A stretch of DNA of 29,514 bases, from the NCBI GenBank assembly GCA_045047115.1, contig JASFYR010000027.1:1-29514 (forward strand), written 5' to 3'. Every line of letters begins with the position of its first letter. Positions within the stretch are counted from its first letter, which is position 1. Positions 1 to 24,213 of the stretch are shown one piece after another. The DNA is from Sulfurospirillum sp. (lineage in GTDB: Bacteria; Campylobacterota; Campylobacteria; Campylobacterales; Sulfurospirillaceae). Below the pieces are notes generated by a model. That model was not told where the DNA came from and made no database searches. It was given only the letters and a program-made list of their open reading frames with translations. Position numbers and translations under genes: made by a program.

Positions 1-1
1 T

Positions 2-184
2 TTTACAGAAGCAAGAATCTGGAAAGGAAATTTTTCACAGGCAAAAATTGACAACTGTAATTTCAATGATTCAGCATTGGGCTCAGCAATATTTGAAGAC
101 AATAATTTAACAAATTCAACGTTTAAGGGTGCTATATTATATAAAACGATTTTTAAAAGATGTGTTATCGGTACTCCACAATAA
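2..184 (+). CDS. Pentapeptide-repeat protein, 3' part (5' end outside window); cassette gene
   Basis: My translation of frame 2: FTEARIWKGNFSQAKIDNCNFNDSALGSAIFEDNNLTNSTFKGAILYKTIFKRCVIGTPQ*. Hydrophobic F/L/I every 5 residues; the stop lies just before attC1. Confidence 0.8.
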   Translation, partial: FTEARIWKGNFSQAKIDNCNFNDSALGSAIFEDNNLTNSTFKGAILYKTIFKRCVIGTPQ

Positions 185-185
185 A

Positions 186-253
186 ATATAACAAATTGTA
201 GGAGCGAATAAATGCCCTAGCGGTCATTTATTCGCTCTACTCAACCGTTAAGT
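186..253 (+). repeat. attC site 1 (68 bp)
   Basis: ATATAAC, 5-nt spacer, GTAG(G)AGCGAATAAATG..CCTAGCGG..CATTTATTCGCTCTAC, 6-nt spacer, GTTAAGT. Confidence 0.88.
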
Positions 254-282
254 ACCAACAAAAACTGAATTGAGGATTTAAA

Positions 283-1134
283 ATGGATTTTATTGCTATT
301 GATGTAGAAACAGCCAATGCTGATTTATCTAGTATATGTCAAATAGGGTTAGCCTTCTTTAAAGATGGAAAAATAATCGACACTTGGGAAACTTTAATTA
401 ATCCAGAAGAAGAGTTTGATCCCATCAATATATCTATTCACGGAATTGATTATTCAAATGTAAAAGATGCTCCAACATTTAATGATATTATTGAAGAGTT
501 TATAGTATTAGTAGACAATAATACACTTGTGTCACATATGTCTTTTGATAGAGTAGCAATATACAGAGCATTTGAAAAGATTAGCCATGAACATTTAAAC
601 TCTTCATGGATAGACAGTGCAATGGTTGTTAGAAGAACATGGAATGACTTATCCAAAAAAGGTTATGGTCTTGCGAATGTTGCAAAAAAACTAGATATAA
701 AATTTGAACATCACAATGCACTTGAAGATGCTAAAACTTGTGGAATAATTTTAGTAAAAGCTCTTACCGAGTTATCAATGGATTTAACTGAAGTTCAGAC
801 TAGAGTTAAACAATCAATTGATGGTCAAAATAATAGAATAAATTTAGAAGGAAATCCTGACGGTAACTTAAATGGTGAAGTTTTAGTTTTCACGGGGGCA
901 CTAATGATTCCAAGGAGAGAAGCAGCAAAGATGGCAGCAGATGCTGGCTGTGATGTTTCAGCAAGTGTTAAAAAGTCTGTAACTATCTTAGTTATTGGAG
1001 ATCAAGACACAACGAAGCTAGCAGGACATAAAAAGAGTTCTAAACACAGAAAAGCAGAAGAATTAATTCAAAAAGGTCAAAACATTAAAATTATCGGTGA
1101 AAGTGATTTTAAAGCAATGGTTGGAATAAACTAG
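283..1134 (+). CDS. DEDDh 3'-5' exonuclease (DnaQ/epsilon-like) with C-terminal BRCT domain
   Basis: ExoI motif AIDVET, ExoIII HHNALEDA, BRCT-like LVFTGAL..RREAAKMAADAGC..VKKSVTILVIG. SD GAGG upstream. Confidence 0.9.
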   Translation: MDFIAIDVETANADLSSICQIGLAFFKDGKIIDTWETLINPEEEFDPINISIHGIDYSNVKDAPTFNDIIEEFIVLVDNNTLVSHMSFDRVAIYRAFEKISHEHLNSSWIDSAMVVRRTWNDLSKKGYGLANVAKKLDIKFEHHNALEDAKTCGIILVKALTELSMDLTEVQTRVKQSIDGQNNRINLEGNPDGNLNGEVLVFTGALMIPRREAAKMAADAGCDVSASVKKSVTILVIGDQDTTKLAGHKKSSKHRKAEELIQKGQNIKIIGESDFKAMVGIN

Positions 1135-1136
1135 TT

Positions 1137-1204
1137 ACTTAACAAAACAGAGTAGCCAATAAATTACCTAGCGGCAATTTATTGGCTATCTTCGACCGTT
1201 GTTC
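1137..1204 (+). repeat. attC site 2 (68 bp)
   Basis: ACTTAAC is the reverse complement of GTTAAGT at 247. Stem TAGCCAATAAATT/AATTTATTGGCTA; GTT at 1198. Confidence 0.9.
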
Positions 1205-1227
1205 GTGCCCGCTACGCGGGCGCGACC
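1198..1227 (+). repeat. 30-bp GC-rich hairpin unit, copy A, at attC2 crossover
   Basis: GTTGTTCGTGCCCGCTACGCGGGCGCGACC followed by a second core GTTAGAT; 28/30 identical to 4788-4817. Confidence 0.85.
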
Positions 1228-1255
1228 GTTAGATAGCCAAAGGAATATTACAAAA

Positions 1256-1996
1256 ATGACAACAATTTTTATTTTAATGATATTAATATTAGTATTTGTT
1301 AAATCTTCATTTGGGAAGGGTTTGATTGGTGAATTTTTAGTAAATTTGGCAATAACTCTCAGGCTAGATAAAAATGAATACCATCTTTTTAAAAATGTGA
1401 CAATTTCAACTAACGATGGTACAACTCAAATCGACCATATTATAGTTTCAATATATGGAATATTTGTGATTGAAACTAAAAACATGAAAGGTTGGATTTT
1501 TGGAGATAAAAATCAAAAGACATGGACTCAGAAAATATACAAACATACCAATAAATTTCAAAATCCACTGCATCAAAATTATAAACATGTTAAAACACTT
1601 GAATCACTATTGAATATTAATCAAAATAAAATATTTTCAATTATTACTTTTGTCGGAGACAGTACTTTTAAAACAGAAATGCCTGAAAATGTAACATATA
1701 CAGGAGGATTTATTAATTTTATTAACTCTAAAAAAATAAAATTGTTATCAGAACAAGAAGTTTTTGAAATTAATTCACTCATCTCTGAAAAACGATTAGC
1801 ACAAACATTTAAAACACATATTAATCACATGCAACATGTTAAAGATATTGTCAAAGAAAAAGAAAACAAAAAATTATGTCCAAAATGTGGAAATTTTTTA
1901 GTAAAAAGAATTTCAAAACGAGGTCAAACAAAAGGTAGTGAATTTTACGGGTGCAGTAGTTATCCAAAATGTAGATATACTACACAAAGTATCTAA
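1256..1996 (+). CDS. NERD nuclease-domain protein with N-terminal TM helix and C-terminal topoisomerase-type C4 zinc ribbon
   Basis: TTQIDHIIVSIYGIFVIETKN (NERD) and CPKCG..FYGCSSYPKCRY. Start reassigned to ATG 1256 (AAGGA upstream) because the track start lies inside the att region. Confidence 0.9.
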   Translation: MTTIFILMILILVFVKSSFGKGLIGEFLVNLAITLRLDKNEYHLFKNVTISTNDGTTQIDHIIVSIYGIFVIETKNMKGWIFGDKNQKTWTQKIYKHTNKFQNPLHQNYKHVKTLESLLNINQNKIFSIITFVGDSTFKTEMPENVTYTGGFINFINSKKIKLLSEQEVFEINSLISEKRLAQTFKTHINHMQHVKDIVKEKENKKLCPKCGNFLVKRISKRGQTKGSEFYGCSSYPKCRYTTQSI

Positions 1997-2058
1997 CAAA
2001 ACAGAGTATCCAATAAATTACCTAGCGGCAATTTATTGGCTATCTTCAGTCGTTGTAT
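1991..2058 (+). repeat. attC site 3 (68 bp)
   Basis: ATCTAAC contains the NERD stop codon and is the reverse complement of GTTAGAT at 1228. Ends GTTGTAT; 56/60 identical to attC2 between AAC and GTT. Confidence 0.9.
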
Positions 2059-2132
2059 CTAAAGTCATAACTTCTAAAGTGATTTTAAATATGGCTAATT
2101 TATTAGTCTAAAAATCACATATGGAGGTCTAC

Positions 2133-2507
2133 ATGACAAATGAAGACAAAATTAACAGCCTTGATGTAAGTGATAGCTGGAAAGCTAAACTTATGACAAT
2201 TGACAAGGCAAAGCCTATAAGTTTTGGTTTTATACCAAAATTCGAGAATCCAAAAGAGTTAAATTTTAGTGCAAAATTTAATTTTTTAGCATTTTTCTTT
2301 AGTGTAATTTATTATGCAATCAAAGGGATGTGGAAAAAAGCACTGGCAATTTTAGGGTTAAATATTGTCCTTGTGGTAATAGTAAGCATGATAAATCCAA
2401 ATTTTGCTCAATTTGTTAGCTATGGTATAGCAGGATTAGCAGCAAGCATGGCAAATAACGATTTTTATCGTTTTAAAGTTTTAGATGAAGGGAATTTTTG
2501 GTGGTAG
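2133..2507 (+). CDS. DUF2628-like small membrane protein
   Basis: FNFLAFFFSVIYYAIKGMWKKAL..ANNDFYR pattern with hydrophobic helices; GGAGG before ATG 2133. Confidence 0.75.
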   Translation: MTNEDKINSLDVSDSWKAKLMTIDKAKPISFGFIPKFENPKELNFSAKFNFLAFFFSVIYYAIKGMWKKALAILGLNIVLVVIVSMINPNFAQFVSYGIAGLAASMANNDFYRFKVLDEGNFWW

Positions 2508-2509
2508 AG

Positions 2510-2719
2510 ATGAATAAAATATTTGAAAGTGATGATTTATCGAAAATTGTTAAAGATAGGAGTTTTGTAAATTGTAACCAAAAGTGGGAATTAGAAGATT
2601 TACAAAAACAAGGCTATTCTCTGGATGCGATTAAGCATTGTTGCAAAAAAGACTTAGGAAACAATCCAAGAGATAAATTTGAGGATTGTTTAAAAAACTT
2701 TGAGAAGGGTCAAAAATGA
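2510..2719 (+). CDS. Small hypothetical protein
   Basis: Tightly packed between neighbours (ATGA overlap with the next gene); no recognisable motif. Confidence 0.55.
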   Translation: MNKIFESDDLSKIVKDRSFVNCNQKWELEDLQKQGYSLDAIKHCCKKDLGNNPRDKFEDCLKNFEKGQK

Positions 2720-3258
2720 GAAAACTAAAAATACTTTTAATTGGACTGTTTGTATCACTTTTTGTAGCAGGTTGCGGCAATAATACTGATTTAGTAAAAG
2801 ACGGTATTATGAATTTTAATAAAACAATCACTGTTGGTGAAGCATTTGATAACTGGAAAGATTGTAAAAATAGAGAATGGGAATCATTTGAAACTGATAA
2901 TGGTACACCAGTTGTTCAGTTTACATGTGAAAAGAAAAATGCTAAAGAGTATTTACAAAAAGTAAAAAGTTTTTTATCTAAAAAAGAGCAAAAAAAGGCT
3001 TCCTATTTGGATATAAAATCTAACAAACAGATATTTCAATGGACTATCAATAAAGATGATACTTTTCAAATTGACAATGTTCAAGTTGAAACAGTATGGG
3101 CAGATGGCAAGAAATTTTCGGATTCACAAAAACCCATGAAGCAGTTGGAAGCCGTTTATGATAATGAAATTACTTTTAATCTACGTGAAATTAATAAAAT
3201 GACAGCTACTCAATTAGCAAACACATTCTATTGGATAAAAGAAAGAGGGGCAAAATAA
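2716..3258 (+). CDS. Hypothetical lipoprotein
   Basis: Signal peptide with lipobox-like FVAGC. Confidence 0.75.
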   Translation: MRKLKILLIGLFVSLFVAGCGNNTDLVKDGIMNFNKTITVGEAFDNWKDCKNREWESFETDNGTPVVQFTCEKKNAKEYLQKVKSFLSKKEQKKASYLDIKSNKQIFQWTINKDDTFQIDNVQVETVWADGKKFSDSQKPMKQLEAVYDNEITFNLREINKMTATQLANTFYWIKERGAK

Positions 3259-3264
3259 AATTAT

Positions 3265-3305
3265 TAGCAAAACTCAATCCATTTTTATTTGAGTTTTGCT
3301 ATAAT
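3265..3305 (+). promoter_or_regulatory. Extended -10 promoter overlapped by a 13-bp inverted repeat (TA operator or upstream terminator)
   Basis: TAGCAAAACTCAA (3265-3277) / TTGAGTTTTGCTA (3289-3301); TG-c-TATAAT at 3297-3305. Confidence 0.6.
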
Positions 3306-3325
3306 AAATGAGTAGGGAGTTTATT

Positions 3326-3583
3326 ATGCAAACATTAACAGTAAATATTCAAGATGGTTTTATTCAGGATTTTTTATCAATTGTTGAACATTACAAAGGT
3401 AAAATACAAATACAAAAAGATAAAAACTTAGAATATGACCCATATTTCTATGAAAGAAAAAAACAGCTTCAACAAGATATTGATGATATTGATAGTGGCA
3501 AAGTTGAGATGCTATCACAAGAACAATACGATAAAGAAATGAATAGCTTTTTTATAGAGTTAAAATCAAAATATGCAAATTAA
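3326..3583 (+). CDS. Putative antitoxin of the RelE/ParE-type pair
   Basis: Small acidic ORF overlapping the downstream toxin; GGGAG before ATG 3326. Confidence 0.7.
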   Translation: MQTLTVNIQDGFIQDFLSIVEHYKGKIQIQKDKNLEYDPYFYERKKQLQQDIDDIDSGKVEMLSQEQYDKEMNSFFIELKSKYAN

Positions 3584-3863
3584 TCGTTCTCCACGATACA
3601 AAAATAATCTTTTTCAAATTTTAGATTATATTGCACAAGATAAGCTTAGTGCAAGTGAAAATTTTCTAAATGAACTTGATAAGCTAATTAATAATCTTCC
3701 AAATTTTCCATTTAAATTTAGAAAATCAAGATATTTTGATAATGAGAATATCAGAGATATGATTTATAAGGGCTATACTGTGATTTACCGAGTAGATGAA
3801 ACAAAAAATACTATTGATATTATTCGTATTTTTCATAAGAATAAGCCACCATTAAAAAAGTAA
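3573..3863 (+). CDS. RelE/ParE-family type II toxin
   Basis: ILDYIAQDK..ASENF..LPNFP..IRDMIYKGYTVIYRV..IDIIRIFH pattern; 96 aa, basic. Confidence 0.88.
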   Translation: MQINRSPRYKNNLFQILDYIAQDKLSASENFLNELDKLINNLPNFPFKFRKSRYFDNENIRDMIYKGYTVIYRVDETKNTIDIIRIFHKNKPPLKK

Positions 3864-3866
3864 AAG

Positions 3867-3934
3867 ATACAGCAAAACAGAGTATCCGATAAATTACCTA
3901 GCGGCAATTTATCGGCTATCTTCAACCGTTAGCA
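3867..3934 (+). repeat. attC site 4 (68 bp; inverse core AAC changed to AGC)
   Basis: AGATACAGC versus AGATACAAC expected from GTTGTATCT at 2052. Compensatory stem change at G3888/C3913; ends GTTAGCA. Confidence 0.88.
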
Positions 3935-3950
3935 TACATTCAAATATTAA

Positions 3951-3979
3951 AGTTCTATTAATGGGAACTATAGTATAAT
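3951..3979 (+). promoter_or_regulatory. higBA promoter/operator
   Basis: Imperfect palindrome AGTTC-tattaatgg-GAACT (3951-3969), then TATAAT at 3974-3979. Confidence 0.6.
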
Positions 3980-3985
3980 ACCTTT

Positions 3986-4285
3986 ATGAGAGTAATATCC
4001 AAAAAGACGCTGAAAGATTTTTATGAACAACCGAAGTACTCTGATAGCAAAAGTGCTTTAGAATCTTGGCATAAAGAAGTCATAAAACTTGATTGGAATA
4101 CACCAAATGAGATTAAAGAAATGTATCGAAATGCCAGTGTTATTGGAGATACAAAAGTTGTCTTTAATATAGCAGGGAATAAATACAGATTAATAGTTGC
4201 CATAAACTATTATGCAAAAATTGTATTTATTAAGTTTATTGGAACACATAAACAATATGACAAAATAAATGCAGAGGAGTTATAA
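3986..4285 (+). CDS. higB: HigB-family toxin
   Basis: MRVISKKTL..W..PNEIK..VVFNIAGNKYRLIV..FIGTHKQYDKI; toxin-first gene order. Confidence 0.93.
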   Translation: MRVISKKTLKDFYEQPKYSDSKSALESWHKEVIKLDWNTPNEIKEMYRNASVIGDTKVVFNIAGNKYRLIVAINYYAKIVFIKFIGTHKQYDKINAEEL

Positions 4286-4286
4286 G

Positions 4287-4658
4287 ATGAATATTAAACC
4301 CATTAAAACAGAACAAGACTACAGCAGTACATTAAGCCAAATAGAAAGTCTAATGAATGCTAACCCAAATACAAATGAAATGGATGAGTTGGAGGTCTTA
4401 ACAACGTTAGCTGAAGCCTATGAGGAACAACATTACAAAATAGAAGCTCCAGACCCTATAGAAGCGATAAAGTTTAGAATGGAACAAGAAGGCTTAAAAC
4501 AAAAAGATTTAGTTGCGATTGTTGGAAGTAAATCTAGAGTATCGGAAATCTTAAATAAGAAAAGGAAACTCACTATTGAAATGATTCGCAATTTACATAC
4601 TCAACTACATATTCCAATAGAAAGTCTTTTTTTAGATTACAAAACTAACTGTGCTTAA
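4287..4658 (+). CDS. higA: HigA antitoxin (HTH)
   Basis: IKPIKTEQDY..PDPIEAIKFRMEQ..SKSRVSEILNKKRKLTIEMIR. Confidence 0.93.
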   Translation: MNIKPIKTEQDYSSTLSQIESLMNANPNTNEMDELEVLTTLAEAYEEQHYKIEAPDPIEAIKFRMEQEGLKQKDLVAIVGSKSRVSEILNKKRKLTIEMIRNLHTQLHIPIESLFLDYKTNCA

Positions 4659-4659
4659 A

Positions 4660-4794
4660 TGCTAACAAAACATAGCAAGAAAATATGTTACCCAAGCCGC
4701 GTTTAACTTTGAAAACTTCAAAGATTTAGCTACCATTGTAGAACTTAAAAGAGTACAAAAAAGGGTAACATATTTTTGTACTCAACCGTTGTTC
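4660..4794 (+). repeat. attC site 5 (135 bp, different type)
   Basis: TGCTAAC is the reverse complement of GTTAGCA at 3928. Stem AAAATATGTTACCC/GGGTAACATATTTT around a long variable region; 5/6-nt spacers; GTT at 4788. Confidence 0.85.
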
Positions 4795-4817
4795 GTCCCC
4801 GCTACGCGGGCACGACC
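4788..4817 (+). repeat. 30-bp GC-rich hairpin unit, copy B, at attC5 crossover
   Basis: GTTGTTCGTCCCCGCTACGCGGGCACGACC followed by a second core GTTATGT. Confidence 0.85.
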
Positions 4818-4991
4818 GTTATGTGTCACAAGAAGCACCTTGCTTAGAGTTAAGTTGTTTTGCAAACAAACAGAGTTTTGAAAAGATTTGTTTACAAACA
4901 TATTTTGTGCCACCATATAAACTAAAAAGATATCTTAATACTCCAAAAAATTTTACCCTTATATAAATTTGCAAGACAAAATGGTATAAGA

Positions 4992-5237
4992 ATGCGCGCA
5001 AACAAGAATGAATACCGTACCTATAAACACTTAAGATTTATAGACAAAGCAAAAGGCAAATTGCCAAACAAGAGTATAAAAGAAAGTTTTGCAGCACTTG
5101 TATTTGCAATGGAGCGTTTTCCGAGAAAAGCTACAATGGATATTGAGACAATGGATTATTCAAATAAAAAACCAGGCAATGGTCCGCTAGCAAAAGGAGA
5201 AATTCTCTTAAATCCAAAAATAAAAACTAATGCATAG
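4992..5237 (+). CDS. Hypothetical protein, possibly the 5' part of a decayed gene
   Basis: 81-aa ORF with no SD and no motif; the same frame continues with several stops to about 5420. Confidence 0.35.
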   Translation: MRANKNEYRTYKHLRFIDKAKGKLPNKSIKESFAALVFAMERFPRKATMDIETMDYSNKKPGNGPLAKGEILLNPKIKTNA

Positions 5238-5416
5238 GTGATATAGGCAAGACTAAAATTTCCAGGGTATTACAGAGGTAAAATAGATGAATATTTTGGT
5301 AAAATTCAAAAAAAGCATTAGGCTACTTTATAAAAGACCTCCTTGGAGCACGCTGCAACAAGTGGTCTGCAAAAGTTCAAAGAAAGTTATTTTGAAATAG
5401 TGGGTTCTAGTCGTAG

Positions 5417-5448
5417 CTACATGCCAATTTTTAAAGATTGGCATGTAG
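5417..5448 (-). terminator. Hairpin downstream of nifU
   Basis: CTACATGCCAAT / ATTGGCATGTAG, a perfect 12-bp stem 10 nt after the stop codon; no clear U tract. Confidence 0.65.
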
Positions 5449-5458
5449 TTGATTATAA

Positions 5459-6448
5459 TTAGATGGGTAAAACTCTTATTTTATCACTCAAGTGCTCTCT
5501 TAGCACCGCCTCTATAGCATACAGTGTCCCTGTGCTGCTACTGGCGCATCCACTACAAGCTCCGAGGTATCTGATATATATATCTGTATATCCATCATCT
5601 GTATCTCTGATATCTATAATTTCAAGATTTCCACCATCTATCATGAGCATTTCTCGGATATTTTCATCGATGACTTTTTCTACTTTTTTGAGTTTTTGAA
5701 CCATTGTCATATCTTCAAAAGCAAATTCACTGCTTTCATCTGTCTTGGCATCAGCGAGCTCACCTAGTTTTTTCTTTTCCATCTCTTCTCTTGTTTCTTT
5801 TAAAATATCAACAAGATAATATTCTCTCTCCTCGTGACCACCTGGTTTTATACAAGATTTGCAAAATGCACCGGCTTTTGTATAATCAGTAATCTGCTCT
5901 ACGGTTTTTAAGTCATTTAAGATTATCACCTCTTTTATCGTGCCAAGACTCACTCTTGCGCATTCACATACTATGATTTGATCCTCAAAACTAGCAGCAT
6001 CCACACCTTTGTATGAAGCAGCAGCCTCTTTTATGACATCATATGCCATAACTGAGCAGTGCATTTTTTGTGGTGGAACAGCAGGAGTGTCCGGATTGTC
6101 ACGCATAGCTTTCTCAACATCTATATTCGTAATCTTTATGGCTTCATCAACTGTTTTACCTTTGCACAACTCAGCCATAGTATCACTACTGGCTATCGCT
6201 GTTCCACATCCAAAACTCTTAAATTTCGCCTCTTTGATTATATCAGTTTCTGGATCAACTGCCCAATACAATCTTACTGCGTCTCCGCAGCTCTCAGCTC
6301 CAAAATCAGCTACTACAAGTTTAGCTCTCATCTCTTTGGCTTGTTCTTCTGTTATCTCTCCCATGTTTTTAGGGTTATTCATCAAATCTTGTACTTTTTG
6401 GCTGTACTCTTCCCAAATTGATCCGCCTATTAAGCTATTTTTTCCCAT
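5459..6448 (-). CDS. nifU: NifU-type Fe-S cluster scaffold
   Basis: SCGDAVRLY, FKSFGCGTAIASS, KMHCS, central CEC..CKSC, C-terminal Nfu GACSGC. Confidence 0.96.
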   Translation of the reverse strand: MGKNSLIGGSIWEEYSQKVQDLMNNPKNMGEITEEQAKEMRAKLVVADFGAESCGDAVRLYWAVDPETDIIKEAKFKSFGCGTAIASSDTMAELCKGKTVDEAIKITNIDVEKAMRDNPDTPAVPPQKMHCSVMAYDVIKEAAASYKGVDAASFEDQIIVCECARVSLGTIKEVIILNDLKTVEQITDYTKAGAFCKSCIKPGGHEEREYYLVDILKETREEMEKKKLGELADAKTDESSEFAFEDMTMVQKLKKVEKVIDENIREMLMIDGGNLEIIDIRDTDDGYTDIYIRYLGACSGCASSSTGTLYAIEAVLREHLSDKIRVLPI

Positions 6449-17406: not shown

Positions 17407-19137
17407 TTATTTCTGCATAGATGTCAAACTCCCTCTTTTACCCTCTAAACTCACCCCCCCAAAAAAAAACAATCCCCCGCCAGAAAGCGCACAAACCCTC
17501 TTTTTATAAGCTGTAATACTTTTGCTAAGATTCTCAATATCCTTTTCAATCTTCTCAATTTTTTTACTTTTCTCTCCCATCTCTTTTTTTAGCTTTTGAT
17601 TCTCTTTATTGATGATTTCAATTTTGGTGTTATTGATTTTTATATCTTCTAATTCATACTTTAAAGTATCAACATAAGGAAATATACTTTTAAATCTATG
17701 TTTTATATCTTGAATTTTTGATACACTAAAACAATCAACAACCTTTATCTCTTTTGTAATTAAATCCTTCTGATATGCCTGATGAGAGAGATACAGTGAT
17801 GCCTGGTGAAGTAAAATGGTATTGTTTGTCTTTTTTGTGCTAAAACTATTAAAGATATTATTACTTGTTTGATATTCAAGTTCAACAAGGTCCAGTTCAT
17901 CTTTGTCAACAAAGGAGGGCTCTAGTATATATTTTTTATTATCTTTAAAATCAATATATTCAAATCTCTTTAAATCATTGGTGATACTCATCATTTCATC
18001 ATTTGTCTTAAAAGAAAAAACAGTGGCAATGTTTCTTTTTATTTCTGTCATGTTTATTCTTCCTATTTTGTTTTCTAGTAAAGTTATATCTTGTGTTGCT
18101 AAAATATATTCAAATGCATTTTCTCTGCACACATCAACATCAGGAATGTATTTGCTTGTAAGTACCTTTTGTGCTTCATCTATGAAGATAGATATGGGAT
18201 TAAGACTTTGATATGAAACTCTTTTGGTTAGCTCATCATATAGTGCTATATTTAAAGCAGAGATAATATTTTCACCAAGAGAAGAGACATTTAAAATGAT
18301 TATTTTTGAGCTGTTTAACTCTTTTATTATATCAAAGCCATCATTGTTTAAAAACTCCAGATTTGCAATACCACTAAGCACAGAAGAGAGTACTCCAATA
18401 ACCCCAAACTTCCCGGAAGTTTCATTTGAATCTTTTAGGTTTTCATAGGTTTTAAAAGAATCTAGTTTGTTTATCAGCTCATCATATGCAATATAGAGTT
18501 TATCGCTGTTTTTAAAATCATTTTCTTTTAGTATCTTTTCTAAAACCAAAGTGGAGAGTTTTGCTTCTGATATAAAGCTTGAGAAGTATATGGGGTCACA
18601 TGTAAGAGAATATATTGTTTTAAAAGACAGTGCATCTATTTTAAACTTGGCAAATATTCTTTTGTAGCAATCAAGCAGTTTGTAATCTTTGTCTTTTAAC
18701 TCTTGTTCTAAAATCTCTTTTGTTATTAAGAATGATTTTAACATCACAACCAGAGTGTTAAACAGATTAAATGATGCATTTTTCCAATACTCTTCAGAAG
18801 TATTACCGTGCAGGGTACTAAATACATTTTCTAAGCTAGAAGAAGAGGTTAGGGTGAGTAGGTTTATACTGCTACCCCATAGTTTTCCTATTTCATATAC
18901 TAAATCTAGTTTGTTGTATTTATTTGCAATTTGTTTTACCTGGGTGTGCAGGTTTCCTTTGAAGTCATATATCAGTAAACTGTGACCTAGTTTTATTCTC
19001 TCTTCTATATTTGGGAGGATATATCCTACTGTTTTACCTGTGCCTGTTTGACCATAGCAGATGGAGTTTGTGAAGGTTGTGGGGATTAACGGGGTATTAG
19101 GCATTACTGTGTTTTTACTAAAACCAATTTGAGTCAT
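17407..19137 (-). CDS. VirD4/TraG/TraD-like (FtsK-HerA superfamily) P-loop ATPase
   Basis: Walker A YGQTGTGKT, LIYDFKG, Walker B IFIDEAQ, ILATQD. No N-terminal TM; coiled-coil tail; last ~30 aa doubtful. Confidence 0.78.
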   Translation of the reverse strand: MTQIGFSKNTVMPNTPLIPTTFTNSICYGQTGTGKTVGYILPNIEERIKLGHSLLIYDFKGNLHTQVKQIANKYNKLDLVYEIGKLWGSSINLLTLTSSSSLENVFSTLHGNTSEEYWKNASFNLFNTLVVMLKSFLITKEILEQELKDKDYKLLDCYKRIFAKFKIDALSFKTIYSLTCDPIYFSSFISEAKLSTLVLEKILKENDFKNSDKLYIAYDELINKLDSFKTYENLKDSNETSGKFGVIGVLSSVLSGIANLEFLNNDGFDIIKELNSSKIIILNVSSLGENIISALNIALYDELTKRVSYQSLNPISIFIDEAQKVLTSKYIPDVDVCRENAFEYILATQDITLLENKIGRINMTEIKRNIATVFSFKTNDEMMSITNDLKRFEYIDFKDNKKYILEPSFVDKDELDLVELEYQTSNNIFNSFSTKKTNNTILLHQASLYLSHQAYQKDLITKEIKVVDCFSVSKIQDIKHRFKSIFPYVDTLKYELEDIKINNTKIEIINKENQKLKKEMGEKSKKIEKIEKDIENLSKSITAYKKRVCALSGGGLFFFGGVSLEGKRGSLTSMQK

Positions 19138-19291
19138 TTTTTATTCCTTTTAGATTATTTTGGATCAAAAGAAATAAGCGCTTTTTTCTTTGTTTGGAGA
19201 ATTATACTGTTTAGGATGCAAAAGGAGAAGAGGGAATGTGTTGCTTTTTGGGTGGGTGGGAAAATAGTGTTTTATCTGTCTAAATTTATTA

Positions 19292-19371
19292 TTACTTCTT
19301 TCTTAAATATGCTGGAGTATCTAAATCTACTTCTTTTTTTATTGACATAGAAACATTGCCTATAATCGGTC
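19292..19371 (-). pseudogene. 3' gene remnant ending in an FtsZ C-terminal-like peptide, cut by the IS3 element
   Basis: My translation: ..PIIGNVSMSIKKEVDLDTPAYLRKK* then two more TAA; the frame is open up to the IS3 end at 19372. Confidence 0.5.
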
Positions 19372-20371
19372 TGATCCGGCTACACTATTTCCCACAAAGA
19401 ATACAAAGCAATTCTTTGGTAAAATAAACACGAAAAGGTGAAAAAATGAGAAATAGCAGATACACAAAAGAGTTCAAGGATTCAACTGTTCAGTTAGTTG
19501 TAAATGGAAATAAATCAGCACTGCAAGTTGCAAGAGAACTTGATGTAAATTCTAAAACACTGTACAATTGGATAAGAGAGTATAAAAAAGCAAATAATAT
19601 CAAAATCGACAACAGAAGGACAACCCAGCTCCCTACATCTAAAGAAACAATAGAAACTGAAAATCGAAGACTTAGGTTAGAAAATAAGTTGCTTAAACTA
19701 GAAAGAGATATATTAAAAAAGGCAACAGCATACTTTGCGAAAGAAACTCTGTGAAGTATGCATTTATTGAAAAATACAAAATGAGTTTCAATATAAATTT
19801 AATGTGTAAAGTTTTTAAAGTTGATAAAAGCAGCTATTACCACTGGATAAGATGCGGGAGCATAGTCAAAAAAGTTGATGAGAAGCTAAATGAGTTAATA
19901 GAGATAATTTTTATGTAATCTAGGCAGACATACGGAACAAGAAGAATTAAAGATAAACTATTGCAAAGATATGGTTTTATAGTCTCAAGAAGAAGAATTA
20001 AAAACATCATGAAAGATTTAAGCTTATCAGTAAAAATGAAAAGAAGATTTAAAATAAGCACTACTGATTCCAGCCATCATTTGCCTATTGCTCCAAATAT
20101 CTTAAATAGAGATTTTTATGCTTCAAATCCAAATCAAAAATATGTTGGTGACATAACATACATCCCTACTAATGAAGGATGGTTATATCTTGCTACCGTT
20201 ATAGATTTATATTCAAGAAGAGTTGTTGGATGGTCAATGGATGAGCGCATGAGAGTATCTTTAGTTAATGATGCATTAAAGATGGCACTATTGTCGAGAA
20301 ATCCTCCAAAAGGACTTATATGGCATACTGACAGAGGTAGTCAATATGCGTCATACGAGCATAAAGATTTA
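19372..20371 (+). mobile_element. IS3-family element, 3'-truncated
   Basis: Left end TGATCCGGCTACACTATTTCCCAC; orfA plus overlapping orfB; no right inverted repeat. Confidence 0.9.
19446..19754 (+). CDS. IS3 transposase OrfA (HTH)
   Basis: RYTKEFK..VARELDV..TLYNWIR..ERDILKKATAYFAKE. Confidence 0.92.
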   Translation: MRNSRYTKEFKDSTVQLVVNGNKSALQVARELDVNSKTLYNWIREYKKANNIKIDNRRTTQLPTSKETIETENRRLRLENKLLKLERDILKKATAYFAKETL

Positions 20372-20374
20372 TGA
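19751..20374 (+). pseudogene. IS3 transposase OrfB, inactivated
   Basis: Frame opens at GTG 19751 with an in-frame TAA at 19916-19918. GDITYI and WHTDRGSQY present; truncated before the catalytic E region. Confidence 0.9.
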
Positions 20375-20420
20375 TCTGTTAGCCCCATTTCCAACTCAGA
20401 ACGCTACCATTTTTTTTATG

Positions 20421-21771
20421 GATACCGCCCCAAACTTTGTGTAAATGCTAAAATTCCAACAAGATAAAAAAAATAAAGAAAGGAAAAGAAGCATGAACAC
20501 AGAAATCAAGAAACAATCAGTTATGGAAAACATAGATTTCAAAGCACTTTCACAGGAGTGTAAAACTACAGAGGATATCTCAAAGCTCACCAAACAGTTT
20601 ATGAAGCAGATGATCGAGGGAATGCTCCAGGCAGAACTCGAAGAGCATCTCTCCCAAAGTGACACGACACCCAAAAACGGCAGTTACACTAAAAAGGTTC
20701 GCTCCGATTCAGGTGAAATAGAGCTGAATATTCCAAGGGACAGAAAAGCGGAGTTTGCCCCAACCGTCGTTAAAAAGGGACAAAGAGACATCTCCGGAAT
20801 CGATGACAAGGTCATCTCGATGTATGCCGGGGGTATGAGTCTAAGAGATATAGAGAAACAGATCAAAGAGATGTCCGATGTGGAGATGTCCGATACCCTC
20901 ATCAGTAGAATCATCGACAAGATCACTCCACAAATCACGGCTTGGCAAAACCGTACCTTAGAAGCAATCTACCCTATTGTCTATATGGATGCAATGGTCT
21001 TTAAAATCAAAGATGAGAGTGGCTTTTATAAAAACAGGGCTTTGCACTTCGCTATTGGTATTACCCTTGAAGGAAAGAAGGATTTGCTCGGTATGTGGCT
21101 CACAGACAACGAGGGTGCGAAGTTCTGGTTACAGATTGTAACGGAGCTCAAAAACAGAGGCGTGGAAGATCTACTCATAGCTTCCGTAGACGGGCTCAAA
21201 GGCTTTAGTGAAGCGATTAACTCCGTTTTTCCAAAAACCATCGTACAGCGCTGTATTATTCATCAGATTTGCTATTCACTGAAGTATGTCGGTAGTAAGT
21301 TTCAAAAAGAGTTTATGAGTGACCTCAAGCGCGTCTATAAAGCCCCTACTAAAGAGGCGGCCGAAGAGGCGCTGCTCCAGCTCGAGAAGAAGTGGGGTGA
21401 GCGCTATCCTATGGTCATCAACTCTTGGGTGAACAACTGGAGTGAACTCTCGGCTTATTTCAAATATTCCGAGCCTATCAGACGCATTATCTACACTACC
21501 AATACCGTCGAGGGATTCAATCGTCAAGTTAGAAAGATAACAAAGACAAAAGGAGGATTCAACAGTGACGATTCACTCTTCAAACTGGTATTTTTAGCTT
21601 ACAGGGATATCGCTAAAAAGTAGGAAAAATCGATCTCGAACTGGGCGGAGATAATTTCGCAGCTCTCCATTCATTTTAGCGATCGACTTGAGGGAAAAAT
21701 AAGATGAAGTCTGTTATAATGGATCTCTCAAAAAAGGTGAATTTGGTTTACACAAAATATGGGGCGGTCTC
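20421..21771 (+). mobile_element. IS256-family element with complete ends
   Basis: 25-bp IRs GATACCGCCCCAAACTTTGTGTAAA / TTTACACAAAATATGGGGCGGTCTC (22/25). 8-bp target duplication TTTTTATG at 20413-20420 and 21772-21779. Confidence 0.95.
20493..21707 (+). pseudogene. IS256 transposase with late nonsense codon
   Basis: YPIVYMDA, ASVDGLKG, QRCIIHQ, IYTTNTVEG. TAG at 21621-21623 where KKW is expected; frame continues EKSISNWAEIISQLSIHFSDRL.. to TGA 21707. Confidence 0.88.
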
Positions 21772-21807
21772 TTTTTATGGGCTATTTGCTTTTTTTCTGG
21801 AAAAATT

Positions 21808-22408
21808 TTACCGTCGCCACCTCACAAATTTATCAGCCTCATCCAACTTTTCCGATACATTATTTTCATCATAAAAATAATCCAAAGTAGAAGTTTTTAC
21901 TTCTTGTGTTTTTGCTCTATCTCTTAGATTGTCTATATTATCAGTATATATACTAAGCTCTTCTTTGGCTCTTGTTACCTGAACATAAAATGAATTCATA
22001 TTAGCCATATTTGAATCTGTAAATACTATGACTTTTTTAGATGTTTGTCCTTGAGACTTATAGTCTGTTATAGCATATCCATAATCCAAATAATTATAGG
22101 TATTTCGATTTATTATTATTTCGATTGAATCTTCTTTTTGTACAGTTATTTGTTTGTTGCTGATCTTCTTAATTATCCCAGTCTGCCCATTTTTAATTTT
22201 TAATTTTCGATCATTTTTGGTGAAAATAATCTTATCTCCGACTCCAAACTCTTTATCTTTTATATCAAAGCTGGCTAAATTGCCGCCATGTTTTGATAAG
22301 CTTACCATAATTTCTTTTTGGTCCGCTGTTTTTAAGGTAAGTATATTTTTTTGCTGGTTTACTTCTTGTATGAATGCCTCAGTCCCTGCTTTTAGTCCGG
22401 TAACTAGA
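21808..22408 (-). pseudogene. Fragment of a TraI/TrwC-type relaxase helicase domain
   Basis: FGVGDKIIFTKNDR..IKNGQTG..LDYGYAITDYKSQGQT..SFYVQVTRAK. The frame extends ~100 nt upstream of the track start; relaxase domain absent. Confidence 0.85.
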
Positions 22409-22534
22409 TAAAGAATTAGACGAATGTATCAATGATATTTTAAAGAGTAAGATTGACGAAAAGAAATTTTTATCGAGAGCTCACTTGCTCCCTGCTGAGT
22501 AATCAAAGATTTTTATCTGTGATGGTGTATAAAG

Positions 22535-23500
22535 TTATAATTTATTTACAGTCAAGATACTCGCCAAAGCCTCTATCTTGATTTTTACATCATTCATTTG
22601 TGGTAGTGTCTGAGCATAAACCAAGTCTTTAAAATCGTTAGTGTAGAAACTGTTGAGTTGGTCGAGGACTGTACTTGTATCAGTAAATATTTTTGTTGTA
22701 TATAGTGGTATACTAGCCCAATTATTTTGATTAAATTGGTTTTGGTCATCGATTCTAACTTTTTGTATCATATCTACAAACTCATTTGAGTTTAAAAATG
22801 ATTCTATCTCCACTTCATTCATTAAAAAATAAATATCATAAAAATGTCTGATTTTTTCTTTAAGTTGAGTCTGTTCACTATCACTCTCATAAGAAGCTCG
22901 TGCGACTGCACTTATCTTTTCACAAAAAGTTCTTTTATAGTTTAGCACATTTACATTGAATGGCTCAAGAGAGTAATGTTCTATCATAGCAGGAGCAACT
23001 TTTGATAAAAAATCAAATATATAGGTGCTTATCTCTTTTGCTTCAAAGGGGTGTGGGTGTGCAAAAGAGTTCAATTCTAAGATAATACTTTCATTTGCAT
23101 GACCAAAATTACCGCTTTCTAGTTTCATATAATCGTGAACAGTTTTTCTAAACTCTGAGCCTTTTGAAGTTTGTTCATGGTTTGGTAACTCATTAAAATT
23201 TTCATCTAAGATAGCGACTTCAATTTTTTTAATCAGCTTCTTTATTTGATTCGAACCTGCACCCTCTGTTATAACTGCCAAATCAATATCTTCTGAAAAT
23301 CTATCAATGATTTTATAAGCTTTAGATAACGAGGTTCCACCTTTAAATATGGCAATTTCAGAGTACTCGCTGTTAGCTAGATTCTTTAACACATAAGTAA
23401 CCCAATAATCTTTTTCAATATATAGGAATGGTAAGTTTAAATCTTTTGCAGTTGTATCAATAAGCTCTTTAAAAAGTTCTCTATCCGTGTGAAGTGTCAT
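22535..23500 (-). CDS. AbiEii/AbiGii-family nucleotidyltransferase toxin
   Basis: IEKDYWV, FKGGTSLSK..IDRFSEDIDL, RTFCEK, RHFYDI. Confidence 0.93.
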   Translation of the reverse strand: MTLHTDRELFKELIDTTAKDLNLPFLYIEKDYWVTYVLKNLANSEYSEIAIFKGGTSLSKAYKIIDRFSEDIDLAVITEGAGSNQIKKLIKKIEVAILDENFNELPNHEQTSKGSEFRKTVHDYMKLESGNFGHANESIILELNSFAHPHPFEAKEISTYIFDFLSKVAPAMIEHYSLEPFNVNVLNYKRTFCEKISAVARASYESDSEQTQLKEKIRHFYDIYFLMNEVEIESFLNSNEFVDMIQKVRIDDQNQFNQNNWASIPLYTTKIFTDTSTVLDQLNSFYTNDFKDLVYAQTLPQMNDVKIKIEALASILTVNKL

Positions 23501-24213
23501 ATAATGTTCCAGTATTTTTTTGAAGGTAGAGTATCACTACTGATACCTATTTTAAAACTTGTGATAGGGTTGAGTGTTTCTTTGAGTTTAAATGCTTCTT
23601 GCCAAAGTCCAATCTCTTTGAGTATCGCCCCTAACAATACTCGTGTTCTTGGTGTATATTTCATCGCATACTCAGCGAGTTTAATCTGATTTTCTTTAGT
23701 CTCTTTTGTAATGATACTTTTTAGATATATAAAAGCACTCTCAGGTGTTGTAGCAGGTATCTTTTTAATGTCTTTTAAGGCATCAAGTATCTGTACTAAG
23801 TAAATATCTTCTTTGGCTACATCAACTCTTTTAGGAACAAGTTTGAGTTTGATATTGTCTATCTTTACTTTTTTGTAAGGCTTTGAAGTTGCGATAGTTA
23901 TAGTGTTTGCTATCTGTGTAGTTAAACCAAGTTGTCTGAAACTATTTAACCCAGTTTCATAACTTACACCATCGGCACTGTTTAAATAGCTTGATATTTT
24001 ATCATCGCTACTTGGTTCAACTTCACCAAACACTCTTTTTTTAGGTTTATAAAACTTACCCTTAGATACTTTTTTTATAATCCCTTTTTTATAAAGACGA
24101 GAAAGTTCAATAGCAACTGTTGCTTTCTTGTCGCTAGGTATATCAGCATAAGTAAACAGTTTTGCACCATCAAGTTTATCTATATAGGTTCTAGTGGTTT
24201 GTGCTACTGACAT
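23497..24213 (-). CDS. AbiEi-like (DUF6088-type) type IV antitoxin
   Basis: N-terminal wHTH LSRLYKKGIIKKVSKGKFYKP and LGLTTQI; 4-nt overlap with the toxin. Confidence 0.85.
   Translation of the reverse strand: MSVAQTTRTYIDKLDGAKLFTYADIPSDKKATVAIELSRLYKKGIIKKVSKGKFYKPKKRVFGEVEPSSDDKISSYLNSADGVSYETGLNSFRQLGLTTQIANTITIATSKPYKKVKIDNIKLKLVPKRVDVAKEDIYLVQILDALKDIKKIPATTPESAFIYLKSIITKETKENQIKLAEYAMKYTPRTRVLLGAILKEIGLWQEAFKLKETLNPITSFKIGISSDTLPSKKYWNII

Follow-up and report, generated by a model that had tools for sequence, protein, structure and literature searches.

A 30-bp hairpin unit at integron crossover points is probably the collapsed remnant of a small ORF-less cassette

Some integron arrays raise the question of what a 30-bp hairpin unit is doing at the points where cassettes meet, and whether such a unit moves by itself or is what remains of something longer. 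The window considered here (the whole stretch analysed, 29,514 nucleotides of a Sulfurospirillum sp. contig, JASFYR010000027.1) begins with a cassette array that occupies its first 4.8 kb and contains five attC sites. A preliminary description had located two copies of the unit in this array, and their coordinates (1199-1228 and 4789-4818), their 28/30 identity and the G|TT on each side of both are all borne out. We consider it probable that the 30-mer is the collapsed remnant (the scar) of an ORF-less integron cassette of 181-191 bp, called the parent below, whose site has been deleted. The features on which the argument rests are the following.

248-1198, + strand: upstream cassette, RNase_T-type exonuclease with a BRCT domain (ORF 283-1134)
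1137-1204, + strand: attC2, ordinary site closing the exonuclease cassette, crossover G at 1198
1199-1228, + strand: probable scar, copy 1, 30 bp; 1199-1221 correspond to the 5′ hairpin body of the parent and 1222-1228 to its 3′ end
1211-1217, − strand: hairpin tip, a GCGNAGC-type DNA mini-hairpin as read from the bottom strand
1229-2052, + strand: downstream cassette, NERD plus Top1 zinc ribbon, closed by attC3 (1991-2058), with the scar fused to its 5′ end
4660-4794, + strand: attC5, 135-bp site closing the higBA cassette, crossover G at 4788
4789-4818, + strand: probable scar, copy 2, 30 bp; 4789-4815 correspond to the hairpin body and 4816-4818 to the 3′ end of the parent, the junction being in the shared CGA
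4819-5458, + strand: final array segment 3′ of scar 2, with a core-like GTT at its start

Each unit is flanked by intact cassette ends, because cores match inverse cores on either side. The core of the exonuclease cassette (247-253) matches the inverse core of attC2 (1137-1143), the higBA core (3928-3934) matches that of attC5 (4660-4666) and, as had been noticed before, the inverse core of the NERD cassette (1991-1997) pairs with the second core (1228-1234). No closing attC was detected for the segment 4819-5458. It had also been correctly described that the position of the unit is precisely that of a G|TT crossover point, that it is missing after attC1, attC3 and attC4, that it has neither an inverse core nor L boxes (there is no AAC and there are no L-box arms), and that it is non-coding and cassette-related. 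By contrast, attC5 is not the unrelated site that it had been called, as its first ten and last ten bases are common with the attC1-4 family and only the interior differs. The proposed fold is a perfect 10-bp stem in the consensus, while each actual copy has one imperfect pair. Its tip corresponds to a known DNA mini-hairpin motif, GCGNAGC (PMC13037366; this and the other cited sources are used for the portions of their text that were available).

The open frame of the NERD gene extends upstream to a TTG that coincides with the start of the scar (1199-1996), a gain of 19 codons that is probably a matter of chance. Elsewhere in the window, a single cassette span of 1.9 kb (2053-3928), in which no attC was detected, has five ORFs, a ParE pair among them, and probably consists of fused cassettes. 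Additionally, a tRNA cluster is followed by an island (17407-24213) with IS fragments, an AbiEii-like pair and what is left of a helicase or relaxase, all named from a reading of the translations only.

The hairpin has six matches in the 2.14-Mb genome (G000) and none for a reversed control, so these matches are not due to chance. Two of them are in the window, one is at an attC on contig C14, two are at attI-like sites without an adjacent intI (C40 and C24), and one is at the attI beside intI. The short 30-mer accounts for five of the six places, three at attC and two at the attI-like sites of C40 and C24, both outside the window. At the remaining one, at the end of C2, which is also the contig that encodes the only IntI of the genome (418.7 bits), the hairpin continues into an inverse core and more structured sequence and not into a second core; this is the long form. 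The parent or its remnant follows 3 of 3 attI-like sites versus 3 of the 10 attC ends found in the genome. As had been anticipated, one cassette occurs with and without the unit, namely a TA cassette present on C24 (with) and at L288 (without), with 216 of 230 aligned bases matching.

Some of these contigs show other particularities. There are attI-like sites with their own −10 box far from any intI (C40, 97-118; C24, near 3360-3380), and further intI-distant attI-like sites were seen at L228, L231, L232, L241, L243 and L249, as well as in G418, a single-contig genome with 10 pattern hits. On C9 (1082-1249), the body of a parent copy truncated on the left is fused to an ordinary attC truncated at the 3′ end, a further decay product.

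To place these copies in a wider frame, we combined the loci of 8 positive genomes among 14 of the genus and of 15 among 401 of the order with 88 raw hits in GTDB contigs and 76 in metagenomes; 105 contexts were left after duplicates and hits without a core were dropped. Many of the 88 GTDB hits, obtained with a 23-letter pattern, were in GC-rich genomes and had no core; a stricter motif removed them as chance matches or unrelated repeats. The hairpin continues into a conserved left arm in 88 of the 105 contexts, while eight are the 30-mer, two are a 33-bp collapse, four are inverted and three are of other kinds. Named records with the parent are mostly labelled Campylobacterales or Campylobacterota, and a covariance model found the parent in 17 of 61 family genomes and 8 of 151 order genomes, some of these matches being partial. 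A spread across phyla was considered and set aside, since the copies in Gracilibacteria, Crocinitomicaceae and Acidobacteria bins are on contigs shorter than 5 kb, occur with the same attC families and may be misbinned. The pattern had no hits in viral contigs, no plasmid matched a parent copy, and two DNA sequencing runs (shares 0.05-0.06) contained cassettes of relatives and not this locus.

The parent consists of a hairpin body of 26-27 nt, with the core at its start and the inverse core at its end, and then of an attC-like site of ~160 nt. In 30 of 38 copies, the arms of this site are perfect inverted repeats of 17-19 bp around two branch hairpins, with no unpaired central spacer and no extrahelical bases in these first 17-19 bp; a mismatch breaks the arms earlier in the remaining eight, and some bulges are present in the divergent L249 and L313. 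The length is 181-191 bp in 42 of the 44 copies with both ends found, and copies beyond those 44 are cut by the end of a contig or are missing the right end. There is no ORF, and the element is conserved over its length and repeated, as is expected of ORF-less cassettes. The core is complementary to the inverse core of the same copy in 93 of 94 copies, with three heptamer types, and a divergent subfamily has GAT/ATC in place of GTT/AAC. The members of this subfamily (L228, L230, L241, L243, L280-L283, L285, L303 and L305) were found only directly at attI in the loci examined.

The structure seems to be maintained, as compensatory changes are observed at 23 of 56 pairs and 97.4% of cells pair among the 38 distinct copies; none of 500 shuffles reached these values, although the relatedness of the copies inflates such counts. 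The bottom strand is more stable than the top one in all 38 related copies, by a mean of 9.3 kcal/mol, and a more stable bottom strand is general among attC sites (PMC5027507). When the parent is folded as a circle, nearly all of it is paired, with an unbroken stem of up to ~31 bp across the crossover point. At the GCGNAGC tip of the bottom strand all four middle bases occur, and a GNA loop is found in 100 of 105 contexts, a count partly forced by the search patterns, divergent copies often having TTT loops. A consensus scan of one copy (L017) found no sigma-70-like promoter inside it. In the alignment (A1), the body loop plus the inverse core recur in the first branch hairpin (columns 81-104), which tends to change together with the core across subfamilies.

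Regarding its insertion, 24 of the 105 contexts are attI-like and 62 are attC, and 18 of the other 19 look attC-like by eye, the attC scorer being crude, with scores that overlap those of shuffles. G000 has IntI, as do 12 of the 18 draft genomes that were positive for the pattern among the 24 searched, and the single-contig genome G011 has a parent copy but no IntI match. By its core and inverse core, and by G|TT contexts with varying neighbours, the parent would pass, at the level of sequence, as an integron cassette that departs from the type only in the canonical bulges. In one locus (L047), an ordinary attC and attI face each other over the hairpin, joined exactly at the inverse core, possibly by top-strand recombination. 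Flipped hairpin loops at L050, L153 and L200 were also considered as products of top-strand use by IntI and discarded, since L294 flips away from any core, which leaves L047 alone as a possible case.

The ends of the 30-mer indicate how it may derive from the parent. It comprises the first 23-27 bases of the parent and its last 3-7, joined at an imperfect repeat, GC-N-CGA, that closes the hairpin body and occurs a second time just within the right arm. There are two junction variants, as the base at N is that of the right arm in seven scars and that of the body in copy 2. In copy 1, the junction is within the shared GC at 1220-1221, or in the CGA with later repair, and the hairpin variant of copy 2 is also present in the full-length copies L012 and L020. 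Among the copies that have the matching right arm, scars were observed in 8 of the 27 with a longer GGC microhomology versus none of the 22 without it (Fisher p 0.006, confounded by lineage). Other subfamilies have scars at their own microhomologies, of 23 bp (L318, with L313 as parent), 33 bp (L148 and L216), 34 bp (L260), about 42 bp (L252) and 57 bp (L301), and, therefore, 30 bp is one among several decay products.

According to the model that we favour, IntI would excise and insert the parent as a folded single-stranded circle at the G|TT of attI and attC. During replication, the 160-nt site would fold and the polymerase could slip between the GC-N-CGA copies, deleting the site and leaving 30 bp. 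One slippage event, with or without repair, might yield both junction variants, and replication slippage across the folded site is the most likely mechanism. Lacking both an inverse core and an L box, the scar is expected to be unable to move alone and to be carried as a 5′ passenger of the next cassette. The same fused pair of scar and cassette was not seen in two places, and at no site were the long and the short form both observed, which makes the deletion a deduction and not an observed event. In any case, the preliminary suggestion of a self-contained micro-cassette or attC-targeting miniature element finds no support, as the unit has no attC of its own and appears to be a deletion remnant of a longer element. 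The alternative that it had raised, an apical fragment of a longer attC left by deletion, was right about the deletion, but the fragment would correspond to the two ends of a whole ORF-less cassette and not to an attC apex.

Other origins of the short form have to be weighed against this collapse. The 30-mer could have arisen from the parent in one or a few events and by now be mobile by itself, its second G|TT being a secondary IntI site at which partners are swapped on both sides, a possibility to which we give a low probability. The distribution of the scars is compatible with such movement: the neighbours on both sides differ among all eight, including the five that this genome alone contributes. 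Additionally, five of the six hairpin copies here are short, and G005 and G008 have none short. The scars of C14 and C24 share a base present in none of 94 long copies, though one is at an attC and the other at an attI, and this private base fits the spread of an already-short unit as well as repeated deletion. By contrast, the 30-mer has no inverse core or L box, and a circle of 30 nt would, as judged from its fold, put the GTT in a loop; moreover, the hairpin variant and the junction of copy 2 match a different long parent, and scars of other lengths exist. It seems still less probable that IntI itself makes the scar, through aberrant L-box cleavage of the bulge-less site at integration or excision. 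The overlap region expected for IntI is the last 7 nt, which are exactly kept in seven of the eight scars, and most scar junctions coincide with the expected L-box cleavage position. Furthermore, the bulge described as blocking attack at the L box (PMC5027507) is absent from the parent. However, this mechanism would require a further cut within the hairpin, which contains no AAC-like triplet; other junctions, each at a microhomology, are found in copy 2 and in the scars of 23, 33, 34 and 42 bp; and loop interiors flip even without an IntI site (L294), which points to template switching. Finally, we regard as very improbable that the short form is artefactual, the product of polymerase slippage over a strong hairpin in library preparation or assembly. 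Although the long form does break contigs (at the end of C2, and many loci end inside it), scars are also found in G007 (two) and on a metagenome contig (L159), where they have point changes of their own, and one contig (L017) contains a long and a short form at a distance of 508 bp.

Identities of other kinds were also rejected. A group IIC-attC intron is contradicted by the absence of a reverse transcriptase (PF00078) match in the genome and by an element of only about 190 bp, and a miniature dependent on IS1111-attC or IS110 by the fact that the one PF02371 gene of this genome has no element motifs within 3.4 kb. The element does not look like a MITE either, as 27-30 bp separate the left end from the start of its inverted repeats and the integron core is the sole end repeat. 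A search of positions 1-5500 against Rfam gave three weak chance matches and nothing relevant at the 30-mer.

Although the 30-mer was noticed at attC sites, the parent and its remnants are frequent at attI, where they head 20 of the 29 attI-pattern hits in the genus, with two uncertain. Seven hits are without them (for instance, L286, L287, L288 and L255), at least two of which are probably not attI, and this speaks against the unit being a fixed part of attI, an option left by the preliminary description. At the attI, the parent forms a terminator-like hairpin facing intI and starts about 8 bases past the likely Pc start (consensus scan of one copy). The pairing probability of the R box of the upstream attC has a median of 0.024 before the parent (21 copies) and 0.22 in lone sites (6), and ranges from 0.007 to 0.85 before scars (4); this comparison is a hint only, as the sites are unmatched and core complementarity is a confounder.

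Three roles may be envisaged for the parent. The likeliest of them, with about an even chance of being right, is a selfish, very frequent insertion with some plugging of attI, in which the hairpin would pair with the core box, as the folds weakly suggest; retention for a regulatory role in host expression appears appreciably less likely, and neutral persistence would be less likely again. A more complete version of the first can only be proposed tentatively. In this scenario, the parent would be a minimal integron parasite or plug, a gene-less single strand that closes near-fully paired, and the IntI of Campylobacterales would recombine sites without bulges. At attI, the core box would be sequestered, so that the parent would stay first and slow capture, and the 30-mer would be an escape product of the host that frees the core.

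Several of these traits have precedents. ORF-less cassettes are known in Vibrio (PMC1382264; 10.1101/2023.11.21.568050), Treponema (PMC6557892) and Xanthomonas (10.1101/2025.06.18.660453), and the parent resembles them in its lack of an ORF, its multiple copies per array and its conservation across species, selfish or regulatory roles having been proposed for the known ones. By contrast, the Vibrio ORF-less cassettes that were tested are of 491-666 bp and have promoter-bearing bodies, while the body of the parent is a hairpin of 26-27 nt and, consequently, its whole circle is self-paired. Likewise, ORF-less first cassettes are rare in the data of PMC6557892 (1/42 and 1/5), as opposed to the 20 of 29 attI-pattern hits described here. 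A precedent in position may be SuezGC14.1 (PMC3146285), a first cassette made up of attC only, which is empty like the parent and comes from a marine sediment sample rich in Delta/Epsilonproteobacteria; however, it is a single case dismissed as non-functional, the available text describes neither a structure nor a family, and the comparison is by description only. Cassette fusion by partial attC loss is also known, as in blaGES-1/aacA4, in which 91 bp of attC were lost (PMC8876359). Both there and in the 30-mer an internal attC deletion fuses a remnant to the next cassette, but here the cassette that loses its site is gene-less, so only 30 bp are left, and the collapse recurs.

The parent shares with canonical attC sites (PMC5027507, PMC2727003, PMC7439510) the core and inverse core, the G|TT crossover, a branched terminal structure and a more stable bottom strand. 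It differs from them in that 30 of 38 copies lack both the unpaired central spacer and extrahelical bases over the first 17-19 bp, and in the GAT/ATC core of one subfamily. Bouvier et al. observed that removing all extrahelical bases and pairing the spacer produced a drastic drop in recombination with both strands (PMC2727003), although Nivina et al. found that some sites tolerate the loss of the bulges alone (PMC5027507). The poor recombination of a bulge-less site by IntI1 would sit uneasily with a parent mobilized by IntI. Thus, there are precedents for empty cassettes, for a first cassette consisting of attC alone and for fusion through the loss of attC, while a description of the parent family was not found in our literature search, although the supplements of PMC3146285 could hold a member.

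The 30-mer alone, as a scar, is of little weight, the parent being the more unusual object. It represents a natural and widespread version of the bulge-less, paired-spacer architecture that crippled IntI1 recombination in mutagenesis and, as such, tests the generality of the attC rules. As it is so frequent at the first position, it offers an object of 190 bp with which to test directly an old question, whether empty cassettes have a selfish or a regulatory role. Additionally, units of this type may escape attC detectors and break short-read assemblies at attI.

Insertion-sequence-like features were also found around these sites. A transposase-like ORF between short G-rich repeats is inside an empty cassette, or replaces part of it, in G000 (C3, about 15100-14170, minus strand), L033, L236 and L051. 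Furthermore, five different attC sites (L021, L034, L067, L128 and L192) have their inverse core replaced, at about one position, by the same IS-like end, which suggests an IS that targets attC.
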